Of a stretch of 64,000 nucleotides of DNA, positions 59,074-63,862 are shown piece by piece (within the stretch, counting starts at the first letter, position 1; every line of letters starts with the position of its first letter). Source of the DNA: an uncultured virus (IMG/VR IMGVR_UViG_3300025887_000015). Its lineage: Duplodnaviria > Heunggongvirae > Uroviricota > Caudoviricetes. The notes under the pieces are model-generated. The model had not been told where the DNA came from. It ran no database searches and worked only from the letters and a program-made list of their open reading frames with translations. The stretch lies in the IMG/VR virus record IMGVR_UViG_3300025887_000015, positions 1 to 64,000 of that record, one strand, 5' to 3'. Made by a program: the position numbers and the translations under genes.

Positions 59074-59148
59074 TTGTAAGCGATTAATTATTTAAAAAAA
59101 CCCTATCATTTATTTGGTAGGGTTATTTTTTTTTCTTATCTTTGTTAT

Positions 59149-59204
59149 AACAAAGGGCCTGACCTAACAAGTCGGAAGAGTAGACTCCAACCTACCTTAT
59201 ATTT
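59149..59204 (+). ncRNA. Putative small structured RNA, copy A
   Basis: Promoter 59113/59137, no ORF, GGAAGAGTAGACTCCAACCTACCTTA. Confidence 0.6.
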
Positions 59205-59348
59205 AAGTTTTCATAAAATAAATGTTAAAGTTCTTGGATATTAAAAAGTTTCATTATGTTGTAAATTTACCTGGTTTTATTTGGTTAGTATATAATAAAG
59301 TCTTATATTTGTACTGTAATCAATATTTAATAATCAAAACCAAAACAA

Positions 59349-60095
59349 ATGAAAAATTTATTCCAAGAAACAAAGTTATTTTTATCACAAGATTATGACT
59401 TATTTAAATTCTTTAACTTCAATAGAGAGGCAGACCAAAACCATGTTAATAGATTAGTTGAATCGATTAAGCGTTGGGGTTTTGTTAGTTGTGTTACAGT
59501 TATTAAAACTGATGCTATTGATGGTGTAATGTCTTATTATATTTTAGATGGTCAACATAGATTTTTAGCTGCTAAAATTTTGAACATTCCCTTCAAGTTT
59601 GATGTTGTTGAGATAGCTACTACCTTAGAGTTGGCAAACTACCTAGCAGACGTTAATAATTGTGCAAAAGCGTGGGGGACAAATCAATTCCTTAATATAT
59701 GGTCAAAATTAAATATTTCAGAATACGTTAAATTATTAAAAGTTCAAACTGAAACTAAAATTCAAATCACACCATTAGTTAAGGCTTATAGTGGTAAAAG
59801 TTCAATGAATGAATTTCGTAAAGGTACTATGACTTTTACTGATGAAGCCAAGTCAGACCAAATTATTAAGCAAATTGTAGACTTGAATGATTATTTACCT
59901 AGTAAAGCATTTTGTAGACGTGCTATTATTGATATAATGAATGATAAAGACTATAACCATAAAATAATTAAGCCATTAATTATTAGACGTGCTGAAAGTG
60001 TTGGGTTTACTGAAAATGAAAATGACCTTAGAAATGAATTAAAGATGTTAGTTCGTGCATCTAAAGTTAACGCACCTAAATTAAAAGTTGCGTAA
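59349..60095 (+). CDS. ParB/Srx N-terminal-domain protein
   Basis: NRE....HV.RL..SI, ILDGQHRFLAA. Confidence 0.75.
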   Translation: MKNLFQETKLFLSQDYDLFKFFNFNREADQNHVNRLVESIKRWGFVSCVTVIKTDAIDGVMSYYILDGQHRFLAAKILNIPFKFDVVEIATTLELANYLADVNNCAKAWGTNQFLNIWSKLNISEYVKLLKVQTETKIQITPLVKAYSGKSSMNEFRKGTMTFTDEAKSDQIIKQIVDLNDYLPSKAFCRRAIIDIMNDKDYNHKIIKPLIIRRAESVGFTENENDLRNELKMLVRASKVNAPKLKVA

Positions 60096-60182
60096 ATTTA
60101 TAAAATAACCTGGTAATTATTTTGCTAGGTTATTTTTTATCTTATATTTGTAATATCAATATTTAATCAAAACAAACTAATT

Positions 60183-61112
60183 ATGTTAACAGAAAATCAA
60201 GTAAAAGTTCAAATCATTAGAAACCCTAATGTAAAGTCAAATGAGTTAGATTTTAATTTTGAAGTGCCACAAAAGTTAGGTGGACTTAAACGTGAAATAA
60301 CGGTCAAGCGTAACAACTTATTAAAGTTAGCTAAGTCAAGTACTTATACTCACATAACATTAAGTAAAAAGTTAGGAATCACATCTTATGCTTTAAGTCG
60401 TTTCTTAGATAAAGAAACCAACAACCCTATTAATGCAGAAGCTATTTATACTGCTATCTATTCAGTAGATTTGAATGAGTTAAAAGAAGAAACCAAAACT
60501 CGTTTCAATGGTGTTAATAAAATGAATATACGATATAAGTTTATCGAAGCTATTGGAAAAACTAAAAAAACACAAGGTAGGTTTTTTAGCTTACCAAGTG
60601 AAACTTGTGCCTTTGAAAATGAATTGAATATTAATTTAGAAAATAAGTTTCATTACATCGGTGCTGAATGTAAAAAAGATATTTTTGAACAAGCATTACA
60701 AACCATTGCAAAGTATAAACTTTCAATGCAGTTACATTTAGGTAAAGCAAGTGAAGTTTTAATGTCAAAAAAGAATGATTTTTTTGCTCATATATTTGCT
60801 GATTATTGTGGTACATTTCCAAGCTACGAAGCTGAAATTAGACATATTTTTACTAATAATTTAGTGATACGTGGTGGGTTAATTGGTTTAACTTTCACTA
60901 CTCGTGAAGCAAACACTAAAAATCAAACGTCTATTGAGTATCATAAATCGATTTTAGCTGAAATAGGCTCTAAAGATACACCAACTACAATTGGTGGTAT
61001 TAGATTGAAGTTATTGTCTTTTATGAGTAACAACTATAAATTTGAGGAAGTAATTGATTATTCTGATGATGGTTCACACATGGTATTTGTTTTGATAAAA
61101 AGAGTGAAATAA
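60183..61112 (+). CDS. HTH plus methyltransferase-like fold protein
   Basis: HTH-like HITLSKKLGITSYALSRFL; IGAE and FADYCG motifs. Confidence 0.45.
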   Translation: MLTENQVKVQIIRNPNVKSNELDFNFEVPQKLGGLKREITVKRNNLLKLAKSSTYTHITLSKKLGITSYALSRFLDKETNNPINAEAIYTAIYSVDLNELKEETKTRFNGVNKMNIRYKFIEAIGKTKKTQGRFFSLPSETCAFENELNINLENKFHYIGAECKKDIFEQALQTIAKYKLSMQLHLGKASEVLMSKKNDFFAHIFADYCGTFPSYEAEIRHIFTNNLVIRGGLIGLTFTTREANTKNQTSIEYHKSILAEIGSKDTPTTIGGIRLKLLSFMSNNYKFEEVIDYSDDGSHMVFVLIKRVK

Positions 61113-61125
61113 AATAACTCTTTAT

Positions 61126-61156
61126 AAATGGCCTCTAAATTTAGAGGCCATTTTTT
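61126..61156 (+). terminator. Intrinsic terminator (perfect palindrome)
   Basis: AAATGGCCTCTAAA-TTTAGAGGCCATTTTTT. Confidence 0.75.
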
Positions 61157-61224
61157 ATGTTAAATAATTAGGTTTATATATAATAAAGTCTTATATTTGT
61201 GCTGTAATCAAAACAACAAGACAA

Positions 61225-61937: not shown

Positions 61938-62363
61938 ATGACTACTCAAGCAAACATCATTTCAAGCGAAGCCCTTTATAACGTTATCAAGCGTGAAAAG
62001 AATAATAAGGGTGCTACTTTTACTATCAAGTCTAAATTGACTGGTAAGGACTTCACCTATAAGATTGCTCGTAGTGAGTTTAAAGGACGTTGGTACACTC
62101 AAGTATATGTTGAAACAGGATATATGCAATTCACTCATTTAGGTTCTTACTTCAAAGGTAAGATATATAAGCGTGGTGGTGAAATTACTTCACCAAGTGC
62201 AATAGGAATTAGTTTCGTGTTGTTTAAGGTAGAAAATAGACATTTTGAGTGGATTGACCGTCAAGCTGAAATAATGCACTTAGGTTCGTGCTTATGTTGT
62301 GGTAAGACGTTAACTGATGCTCAAAGTATAGAGCGTGGACTTGGCCCAGTATGTGCTGGGTAA
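61938..62363 (+). CDS. DUF6011-like zinc-finger protein
   Basis: CLCCGKTLTD..SI.RGLGPVC. Confidence 0.75.
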   Translation: MTTQANIISSEALYNVIKREKNNKGATFTIKSKLTGKDFTYKIARSEFKGRWYTQVYVETGYMQFTHLGSYFKGKIYKRGGEITSPSAIGISFVLFKVENRHFEWIDRQAEIMHLGSCLCCGKTLTDAQSIERGLGPVCAG

Positions 62364-62445
62364 GTCCTTAAAAAAAAAGTGTTAAAATTTTTGGTAGTTA
62401 TATAATAAAGCCTTATATTTGTACTGTAATCAAAACAACAACTAC

Positions 62446-63165
62446 ATGAAAGATATTAAATACATTTATAGATTAGGTAATACGGTTAACGTATTAAATG
62501 CTAAAGTTTCACAAAACAGTAAGATTGGAATTGGTTATATTATTCAAACATACCATTATTCAATTGAACAAGTTATGGATGCTAGTTTAGTAAATGATAA
62601 AGCAAGTTGTTTAGATTGTCCTTTATCATATAACCAAAACAATGGTAAAAGTGGTGGGTGTTATACTCACAAAGGTATGCAATTAATGGGTTTAAAATCT
62701 ATGTTAAGGGGTCTTAATAGAAAATTAAATACTATTAATGAATTTAAACAAAGTGACTTTTTTAACTTTGTTAATAAAGTTAAAGCAACTAACAAAGTAG
62801 ATTTAGTTCGTTTTGGTGCTTATGGTGAACCAATTCTATTACCTTTAAAAGTTGTTGAAGTCTTAAGTGGTTTAAGTCAAAAAACTACAGGATATACTCA
62901 TCAATGGAATAAACCACAATACCAAAAATATAATAAGTTTTTTATGTCGTCAACACATACTGAAACAGAACGTCAACAAGCTAAAGATTTAGGTTACCGT
63001 TCGTTTTTTGTTGCTACAAGTGAAATAAAGGGTTTTAAGCCACAAAATGCAGTTAATTGTCCAGCAAGTAAGGAAAGTTCTAAAAACCTTTCATGCATCG
63101 CTTGTGGGCTTTGTAATGGTACTAGCAGAGGTATTAAAAAAGATATCTATATAATGAAACATTAA
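62446..63165 (+). CDS. Cys-rich, radical-SAM-like/Fe-S phage protein
   Basis: CLDC...GCY, VRFGAYGEP, GYTHQW, CPAS...SCIACGLC. Confidence 0.5.
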   Translation: MKDIKYIYRLGNTVNVLNAKVSQNSKIGIGYIIQTYHYSIEQVMDASLVNDKASCLDCPLSYNQNNGKSGGCYTHKGMQLMGLKSMLRGLNRKLNTINEFKQSDFFNFVNKVKATNKVDLVRFGAYGEPILLPLKVVEVLSGLSQKTTGYTHQWNKPQYQKYNKFFMSSTHTETERQQAKDLGYRSFFVATSEIKGFKPQNAVNCPASKESSKNLSCIACGLCNGTSRGIKKDIYIMKH

Positions 63166-63222
63166 TTTAAAAAAGACTACCATTAATTTGGTAGTCTTAT
63201 TTTTTTGTCTTATATTTGTAGT

Positions 63223-63280
63223 ATACAAAGCAACCGAGCAAAGGTGAGAAGTAGACTCCACCCTACGCTTATTTTTTTTT
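63223..63280 (+). ncRNA. Putative small structured RNA, copy C
   Basis: Promoter 63187/63211; GAGAAGTAGACTCCACCCTACGCTTA plus poly-T. Confidence 0.6.
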
Positions 63281-63357
63281 ATAAATTAAATATTAAATTA
63301 TTTGGTAGTTAAATAATAAAGTCTTATATTTGTACTGTAATCAAAACAACAGAAATT

Positions 63358-63741
63358 ATGTCAAAAGAAATCGAATTAAAATTATCAAATGAGAAGTGTA
63401 TTGAAATTTTCTTTAATGCTTTGTGTAATGGCTTAGGTTACATTGGTGGTTATGGTATAACCATTGATTGTGATAGAGATGCATATAATGATGCTAGAGC
63501 CAAGTTAGATGTCCCAGCATTTGAGGACGTGTTAATTCAAGTATTAAAAGATGGTGGTGTTATTCAATTCGTGGATAACGAAGGTGAAGAAACTACTGAT
63601 GTTACCTTAGATATGGTTTTAGAACGTATACCACAAGTTGAATTAGATACTCTAATGGAGATGATTCAAGAACAAGATGATGCGTGTACTGCTGATATCA
63701 TTCTACAAACTGTTATCTACGGAGAAGTTCAATTCGGATAA
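63358..63741 (+). CDS. Hypothetical early protein
   Basis: 127 aa, own promoter. Confidence 0.6.
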   Translation: MSKEIELKLSNEKCIEIFFNALCNGLGYIGGYGITIDCDRDAYNDARAKLDVPAFEDVLIQVLKDGGVIQFVDNEGEETTDVTLDMVLERIPQVELDTLMEMIQEQDDACTADIILQTVIYGEVQFG

Positions 63742-63804
63742 AATTAATTAAAAATAACCCATCATTTATTTGGTGGGTTCATTTTTTTTTCTTATCTTTG
63801 TATT

Positions 63805-63862
63805 GGTTGACGGGCGCACTACGGTGGGAAGAGTAGACTCCAACCTACGCTTATTTTTTTTT
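63805..63862 (+). ncRNA. Putative small structured RNA, copy D (identical to B)
   Basis: Part of the 112-bp exact repeat 61750-61861 = 63751-63862. Confidence 0.65.

Follow-up and report, generated by a model that had tools for sequence, protein, structure and literature searches.

Phage-encoded small RNAs are few and come mostly from model phages. The sibling small RNAs, such as Qrr1-5 and the CiaR-dependent csRNAs, exist as several diverged copies that share a conserved core and have their own promoters and often their own terminators. The nut and put sites (lambda nut, HK022 put) are structured, promoter-proximal antitermination RNAs with a conserved hairpin, and they lie within the operon that they control. 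RNA anti-CRISPRs (solitary repeat units) and pseudo-ToxI mimics are small phage RNAs that copy a host RNA and have been proposed or shown to act as decoys of a host defence protein. At the DNA level, the promoter-early stem-loop (PeSL) cassettes of T4-type phages, described by Arbiol et al. (2010; PMC2839356), combine a strong host-type early promoter with an overlapping terminator hairpin; copies of them recur between small genes in a plastic region, where they probably serve as substrates for recombination. In this report, we compare with these systems a repeated element found in a 64,000-nucleotide (nt) stretch of DNA from an uncultured virus of the Caudoviricetes (positions 1 to 64,000 of IMG/VR record IMGVR_UViG_3300025887_000015; this whole stretch is called the window).

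We found that each unit of this element is a real, uncatalogued small structured RNA gene, which occurs in multiple copies in unrelated phages of aquatic bacteria. Its signature is a 16-nt core, GTAGACTCCANCCTAC, written GTAGACTCCA(A/C)CCTAC, that is present four times in the window against an expectation of 0.05; none of 100 shuffles reached four. All four copies are on the + strand, with the core starting at 59180 (unit A), 61832 (B), 63251 (C) and 63833 (D). The whole record, of 78.6 kb and with a CheckV completeness of 22%, contains six copies, the two beyond the window being at 74775 and 76381. The surrounding region, 59.1–63.9 kb on the + strand, consists of small genes, nearly all of them with their own Bacteroidota-type promoter. 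The window contains 26 matches to TTTG-N18-22-TAnnTTTG (4.74 expected; 0 of 100 shuffles reach 26). Of these, 18 fall in the 49-64 kb part of the + strand, where almost every small gene has one. At 59113-59144, 61768-61799, 63187-63218 and 63769-63800, the promoter drives a unit that lacks an open reading frame (ORF) instead of a gene. These copies, each with its own promoter, are spaced 0.6-2.7 kb apart.

An earlier note on this DNA, made from the letters of the sequence, had called attention to four ORF-less units behind TTTG-N20-TAnnTTTG, and pattern and core matches locate them as it claimed. The U-runs that it listed (U10 after B, U9 after C and U9 after D, with none directly after A) and its arm hairpins (CUGAC/GUCGG, CAC-UACG-GUG and ACC/GGU) are all present. 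As it had said, a separate promoter precedes the following gene (59280-59311 after A, 61882-61913 after B and 63301-63332 after C). Its conserved core is likewise in place, although the spacing needed correction: the core begins 35, 32, 32 and 32 nt after the -7 box in A, B, C and D, a range of 32-35 nt and not of 33-36. That the units hold no plausible ORF also stands, because the arm lengths (12-23 nt) differ by non-multiples of three across the family and the mechanical ORFs across B, C and D begin within the promoter.

Family alignments uphold the further proposal of that note, a multi-copy family of structured RNAs in which the 5' arm varies and the 3' hairpin is conserved. The arm helix, P2, covaries strongly among homologues. 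In a gapless MAFFT alignment of the twelve members with a 21-nt arm, which was not fitted to any structure, six of the seven P2 pairs have changes on both sides, and 90.9% of the cells pair. Shuffles pair in 74.9% of cells, with 0 of 500 reaching the observed value, and partners slid out of position pair in 21-55%. A model-fitted alignment of 84 distinct sequences, which leans to the structure, has double changes in all seven pairs, and RNAalifold independently predicts both P2 and the 3' hairpin, P3. For 60 of 73 sequences, P2 folds better in the sense than in the antisense orientation, and G-U pairs make up 71 of 432 (16%); these facts argue for an RNA of this strand rather than a DNA cruciform. 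MAFFT alignments of all 55 members, or of nine, put P2 out of register and were replaced by the gapless alignment of one length class; contiguous-helix and constrained-fold parsers misassigned many arms, and a last-hairpin parse was used instead. The model R1 was built from four sequences and aligns about half of the arms poorly.

P3 is paired in 99% of cells. Its variation takes the form of wobble (GUGG/CUAC, GUAG/CUGC, GUAG/CUGU) and of one AUAG/CUAU double change. We accept P3 as a helix whose sequence is itself selected, because its 3' strand is kept in members with loops of 13-23 nt and the pairing holds through the variants. The covarying closing helix and three-way junction of the earlier note are weak at the level of the family. 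This helix, P1, which joins the GGG to the tail, is paired in 74.6% of cells, mostly by G-U against a near-constant GGG, and it is missing in members with AACAAA or AAUAAA tails; we did not adopt it. A helix between the junction and the tail was set aside as well (57.6% paired, no double changes). In the proposed pseudoknot, the loop is invariant and its GGA partner is not conserved.

From 5' to 3', the RNA comprises an optional 5' hairpin, a G-rich junction, the variable P2, a 4-nt purine junction, the near-invariant GUAG-ACUCCR..-CUAC hairpin and, often, a U-run. The optional hairpin is found in longer members; it is present in unit F of the window phage, not in A–D. The G-rich junction is usually A(C/A)GGG, with GGC, AGC or AGU in many metagenome members among the matches listed and AAAGCA in a “type 2” variant that includes unit C. 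P2 is 12-23 nt of free sequence. Many P2 loops have a common A/C-rich motif, such as CUAACAA or UCACAAG, and others are GNRA or UNCG tetraloops. The purine junction has the consensus NRGR and reads AAGA in 31, GAGA in 15, UAGA in 10 and GAGG in 8 of 73 sequences. P3 is GUAG/CUAC, its loop opens with ACUCC(A/G), and the tail after it has three variable nucleotides, often followed by AUA or AAA. In three loop-enlarged members (L101 1657-1723, L099 1348-1406 and L087 565-619), the P3 loop has grown from 8 to 13-23 nt, with ACUCC(A/G) retained on the 5' side together with the CUAC/CUAU closing strand. Natural variants of this kind can help to delimit the minimal motif.

A -7 box lies 30-56 nt upstream in 48 of 63 IMG/VR contexts and 28-62 nt upstream in 68 of the 109 metagenome contexts among the matches listed. 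Some subgroups have TATAAT/TATATT or a recurrent GCTATACAC at the place of the promoter, and we infer that these may be other promoter types. In L038, L069, L174, L229, L246, L250 and L258, GCTATACAC is found twice, ~10 nt ahead of the RNA and past its U-run. The motif resembles a phage-specific promoter, perhaps one served by a phage-encoded RNA polymerase; if so, the RNA would also be carried by phages with a different transcription strategy.

The family extends well beyond the window phage. A scan of IMG/VR for the exact core returned 64 loci in 63 distinct contexts. Seven of these (L018, L019, L028, L030, L044, L051 and L059) had the core alone and were set aside as chance, and the other 56 have a single common architecture. 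A 19-mer scan of metagenomes yielded at least 128 loci, 117 of them distinct among the matches listed, from marine and freshwater assemblies. The same 19-mer, looked for in one genome each of 185,579 prokaryote species, was present at five loci, all of them family members on short, phage-like contigs of metagenome-assembled genomes; one such genome has three model hits, all on one 39-kb contig. Among 150 other Bacteroidota genomes, R1 matched none. In these searches, the family is phage-specific and essentially missing from cellular genomes.

Among the carriers are two complete jumbo genomes with terminal repeats, one of 288 kb with nine copies at 8.4-35.6 kb and one of 340 kb with six at 296-306 kb. 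Genome fragments carry four and nine copies, the cultured 77.5-kb siphovirus Larrie of Tenacibaculum (ON950054.1, genus Cbastvirus) carries two, and the 635-kb uncultured phage LR745206.1 carries one. LR745208.1 was dropped as a carrier because its match was a chance one in GC-rich DNA. From the promoter type and the Tenacibaculum host of Larrie, the host phylum of the carriers is inferred to be Bacteroidota. No cultured phage matched the 5-kb region in a Megablast search. Of the 171 ORFs of Larrie, eight have any BLASTP hit (E<1e-4) in the carrier genomes G000, G001 and G002. One of them matches all three genomes, its partner in G000 being the thymidylate-synthase ORF; two others have partners in both G001 and G002 and are taken, by their size and adjacency, to be ribonucleotide reductase subunits. 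Larrie and the jumbo carriers are unrelated by this comparison. An association of the RNA with tRNA clusters was considered and rejected: G001 has three tRNAs in or just beyond the RNA cluster and its main arrays at 70-96 kb, and the tRNAs of G002 are all far off.

The units stand alone and are not leaders of the next gene. We inspected 1.1 kb downstream of 35 units for mechanical ORFs of at least 50 amino acids (aa). Twelve units have no co-directional ORF within that distance and a convergent ORF ahead, and in seven more a convergent ORF is closer than any co-directional one. The remaining sixteen precede a co-directional ORF; a -7-type box intervenes in 14 of these 16, although one such box (L001) is a chance match within the tail. 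The one unit that was read in detail points toward a convergent gene, and in Larrie both copies are on the + strand, with all neighbouring genes annotated on the - strand. Larrie also has 1.1 kb without an annotated gene (19227-20364; L107 3419-4556), in which its second copy lies at 19416-19468; the first copy is at about 18.78-18.84 kb. The arrangement of a riboswitch or other cis leader, in which the RNA is the same-direction 5' leader of the gene it regulates, was not found among these units. The pattern of convergent genes and intervening promoters thus excludes a riboswitch-type leader and makes a signal of the nut/put type unlikely. The units do share with nut and put a promoter-proximal structure with a conserved hairpin, located at more than one early promoter and ahead of terminators. 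They differ in that 12 of the 35 face convergent genes, in that downstream genes have their own promoters, in their six to nine copies per genome, and in showing no sequence likeness.

These same data bear on a broader alternative, that the unit is a cis-acting transcription element: its fold and U-run would constitute a conditional terminator, an attenuator, an insulator or a nut/put-like antitermination signal, and it would regulate whether transcription from a strong early promoter reads on into the DNA downstream, including antisense transcription into convergent genes. The placement of the units is consistent with this idea. They always directly follow a promoter, the order in the window is promoter, unit, U-run, promoter and gene, and a U-run lies at most 18 nt from the fold in 53 of the 109 metagenome members among the matches listed. 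Further, GGG-tail pairing and the U-run tend to go together (16 of 20 against 9 of 17), but this association is not significant (p = 0.16). Half of the members, moreover, have no U-run and run on as AACAAA or AAUAAA; the next gene nearly always has its own promoter, and 12 of the 35 units face a convergent ORF with no co-directional one. Mere termination also does not call for a near-invariant 20-nt sequence across unrelated phages with three promoter types. We regard a cis-acting role as unlikely.

The RNA matched no family in the catalogues searched. The earlier note had named a match to an Rfam family as a result that would speak against its proposal; at the gathering score, Rfam 15 has no match anywhere in the window. 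With E up to 10, the region 58900-64000 gave 12 weak matches, which lie on terminator hairpins or on the opposite strand and fall far below the gathering score, and 15 diverse relatives gave three weak matches, all outside the units. ARAGORN found no tRNA or tmRNA gene in the window or in the 78.6-kb record. Likenesses noticed by eye (to the 16S 3' end, a strand of 5S loop E, the tRNA T-arm, a Cas12a repeat and a hantavirus terminus) were rejected as short, fortuitous similarities in which strand order or structure was wrong. In the literature, a search for a 9-mer of the sequence led only to unrelated papers, and topic searches found no description of the family. The Larrie paper mentions no small RNA, and a 2023 catalogue of viral structured RNAs gave no text hit, although three of its supplementary files were outside the search and the family may be there unnamed.

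Among the functions suggested in the earlier note, mimicry of a host RNA, either a CRISPR repeat or an antitoxin, has lost ground. Like the RNA anti-CRISPRs and pseudo-ToxI, this is a phage-encoded, promoter-driven small RNA; unlike them, it has no similar sequence in the host genomes searched, no tandem array and no ToxI in the Rfam scans. No RNA similar to it was found in the 150 other Bacteroidota genomes, a comparison in which the CRISPR repeats of the true hosts were not included and which a purely structural mimic would escape. The tandem repeats beside an endoribonuclease toxin that characterise ToxI were not seen either, as judged from the Rfam scans and with no search specific to toxin genes. 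A guide function is weakened by the variable arm, which is an internally paired hairpin rather than a free guide. The suggestion that we prefer is that of a protein sponge.

We propose that each unit is a self-contained gene for a structured RNA of ~50-75 nt. Host RNA polymerase would transcribe it from the strong host-type promoter, and in about half of the members the transcript would end at the U-run just behind the fold. The 5' hairpin and P2 would serve as freely varying scaffold helices, and the near-invariant 3' module (the NRGR junction with GUAG-ACUCCR...-CUAC) as the surface recognised by a conserved factor of the host, which is most likely a protein. Acting in trans, neither as an antisense seed nor as the leader of the next gene, the RNA would titrate or redirect this factor early in infection, and the gene would move among unrelated phages as a small promoter-RNA-terminator cassette. 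A BLASTP search (E<1e-4) for a phage protein common to the carriers found none beyond nucleotide-metabolism genes. Since the carriers are unrelated and no phage partner was detected, the RNA probably travels between lineages as a self-contained cassette, and since no such partner is common to the carriers, the conserved module probably meets something that all of the hosts have. Together with this cassette spread, the clustering of the units, toward one end of two complete genomes and among small genes with many promoters, leads us to favour a trans-acting RNA whose conserved module binds a host factor, a tentative reading that we rate just short of probable.

Several points count against that proposal. 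The host protein as a partner follows from exclusion, and a phage protein that is small and evolves fast may escape BLASTP at E<1e-4. P3 hardly covaries and is conserved at the level of sequence, so that it is equally readable as a DNA site or a single-stranded motif; the core-based searches demanded the motif, and the apparent invariance of P3 and the core is therefore partly built in. Folded singly, the window copies do no better than shuffles (z = -0.58, +0.17 and -1.94), and for this reason the structural case rests on comparative evidence. For the half or so of the members that have no U-run, no 3' end or size can be read. Finally, the only RNA run with this DNA, a metatranscriptome that held 8% of the sampled words, has four low-depth contigs that cover pieces of genes only, and this run could include contaminating DNA.

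A more specific version of a trans-acting role, distinctly less probable in our view, is that the RNA is a free-standing, highly expressed decoy of the aptamer type, in which a pocket of invariant junction and loop nucleotides would sequester a conserved component or signal of host immunity, be it a defence protein or a nucleotide second messenger.

The architecture of the units also recalls the sibling small RNAs, in that several diverged copies, which have promoters and often terminators to themselves, combine a conserved core with a variable remainder. This likeness raises the possibility of a base-pairing RNA that would anneal to mRNAs of host or phage through its conserved 3' part or its variable arm loops; the A/C-rich motif common to many P2 loops could be read in the same way. 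Unlike the sibling RNAs, however, the family is phage-borne across unrelated lineages, has no detected complementary target, and has a closed hairpin as its variable part. In 100 other Bacteroidota genomes, complements of the core with up to two mismatches were no commoner than those of a control pattern, which matched as often or more. Complementary 9-11-mers were at chance level in the four phages G000, G001, G002 and Larrie; seeds of 6-7 nt are beyond the reach of this count. Moreover, the loop motif has the same sense as the leaders of phage genes rather than the antisense, and in other members a GNRA or UNCG tetraloop stands in its place. On this evidence, base pairing as the principal function seems very unlikely.

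The DNA upstream of the units gives rise to another idea. In A–D alike, the -33 box lies at the loop end of a hairpin and enters its 3' arm, and a T-run follows the hairpin; this hairpin is the putative terminator of the preceding gene in all four units. These upstream composites have the promoter/stem-loop organisation of PeSLs, with the -33 TTTG at the loop end and the T-run between the boxes. The likeness concerns the composite upstream of the RNA, not the RNA itself. A PeSL drives the next gene directly and without a conserved transcribed RNA module, whereas the promoters of A–D drive a 50-nt structured RNA with a covarying helix, often terminated, and the gene uses a second promoter. At 60103-60150, the same composite of terminator hairpin and promoter (AACCTGG/CTAGGTT, a T-run and TATATTTG) has a protein gene under its direct control, with the ATG at 60183. 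This design is therefore a general one in the phage and is independent of the RNA units.

It is thus conceivable that the element is a DNA-level recombination or mobile cassette of the PeSL kind, in which the repeat serves modular gene shuffling and the transcript is a by-product. In addition to the hairpin that overlaps the promoter, the occurrence of the element in unrelated phages is in keeping with this notion, as is the repeat formed by B and D with their composites (61739-61861 and 63740-63862; repeat family D4), which are 98% identical over 123 nt and flank different genes. Between 59135 and 63350, metagenome contigs end at the promoter/unit modules, and some join distant ones (59204 to 63310 and 61173 to 61862 are examples), with other sequence in between. 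The joints suggest that coexisting strains differ in the gene cassettes between these modules, a weak indication in view of joined sides of 20-40 letters; sides this short may derive from other strains or from repeats. That the cassettes also recombine is suggested both by the near-identity of B and D and by the breaks and joints of contigs at the modules. However, recombination requires neither the maintenance of P2 pairing through double changes nor the strand-specific G-U bias, and the core is identical across phages whose promoters and flanks are wholly different. We therefore consider it highly improbable that recombination is what the repeat is for. Equally improbable is a free-standing aptamer or small ribozyme with the conserved junction and loop as ligand pocket or active site: variable helices around invariant junction and loop nucleotides are the pattern of aptamers and small self-cleaving ribozymes, and the element is multi-copy in phages without a gene association, but it has no expression platform or regulated gene, no match to an Rfam ribozyme or riboswitch even at E up to 10, nothing that indicates a ligand, and, in many members among the matches listed, AG or GC in place of the 5' G-run that could close a pseudoknot.

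The four units of the window, all on the + strand, illustrate the range of the family. Unit A is preceded by a composite at 59094-59144 (an A-run, the hairpin ACCCTA/TAGGGT and a T-run; repeat family D2), and its promoter match has the -33 TTTG at 59113-59116 and the -7 box TATCTTTG at 59137-59144. Its RNA (59149-59201) scores 80.5 bits with R1, at 59153-59201, and 48.4 bits with a second model, R2. It has GGG at 59155-59157, P2 at 59159-59163/59171-59175 with the loop CUAACAA, and the junction AAGA at 59176-59179. P3 follows (GUAG 59180-59183, CUAC 59192-59195) with the loop ACUCCAAC, and the tail CUUAUA is without a U-run. The minimum-energy fold of this unit contains both P2 and P3. The promoter at 59280-59311 then drives a ParB-like ORF at 59349-60095.

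Upstream of unit B, the composite (61750-61799) has the hairpin AACCCA/TGGGTT and a T-run, the -33 TTTG at 61768-61771 and the -7 box at 61792-61799. The RNA (61804-61862; 36.6 bits with R1 and 36.9 with R2) has GGG at 61811-61813, P2 at 61814-61818/61823-61827 with a UACG loop and one G.G mismatch, the junction AAGA at 61828-61831, P3 at 61832-61835/61844-61847, the tail GCUUA and U10 at 61853-61862. The next promoter, 61882-61913, drives an ORF at 61938-62363. Unit D repeats the same design: its composite, at 63751-63800 with the promoter match at 63769-63800, is that of B, and its RNA, at 63805-63862, is the B sequence again, followed by U9. The promoter after D has TTAGG in place of TTTGG.

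Unit C is the type 2 variant. Its composite (63166-63218) consists of the hairpin AGACTACC/GGTAGTCT and a T-run, with the -33 TTTG at 63187-63190 and the -7 box at 63211-63218. The RNA (63223-63280) was recognised by its core match, and R1 and R2 match its 3' hairpin only. AAAGCA replaces the GGG junction, P2 is ACC 63233-63235/GGU 63243-63245, and the junction is (G)AGAA; P3 is at 63251-63254/63263-63266 with the loop ACUCCACC, and the tail GCUUA precedes U9. At the site equivalent to this P2, its relatives L012, L027 and L092 have ACC/GGU, AGG/CCU and AAC/GUU. The gene promoter after C, 63301-63332, drives an ORF at 63358-63741.

Some other features of the window deserve mention. Between 49000 and 64000 on the + strand, each promoter match is followed by a conserved leader, GTAATCAAAACAAC, just ahead of the start codon (repeat families D1, D5 and D6), which looks like a shared 5' untranslated region or translation-initiation signal. 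At 57594-57708, a promoter close to that of unit E (TTTGGTAG...CCTTATCTTTG) precedes an 83-nt leader without the conserved core and then an ORF at 57709-57960. The ORFs of the window include those for capsid, portal, terminase, protease and thymidylate synthase, and the virus is therefore a tailed phage. One ORF of 1096 aa (17872-21162, - strand) matches portal at residues 633-923 and an HNH endonuclease at residues 265-364; it may contain an inserted or fused homing-endonuclease domain.

The RNA described herein is short, sharply defined and easily recognised, and its carriers range from a 77-kb siphovirus to jumbo and 635-kb phages of marine and fresh waters. One of these, Tenacibaculum phage Larrie with its two copies, is available in culture along with its host, which makes a bench test directly possible. 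The spread of the cassette among unrelated phages and its clustering fit a role in host-directed takeover or counter-defence. If the decoy proposal is true, the RNA would be the counterpart of the protein “sponges” by which phages counter immunity, traded between unrelated phages as a 150-bp cassette.

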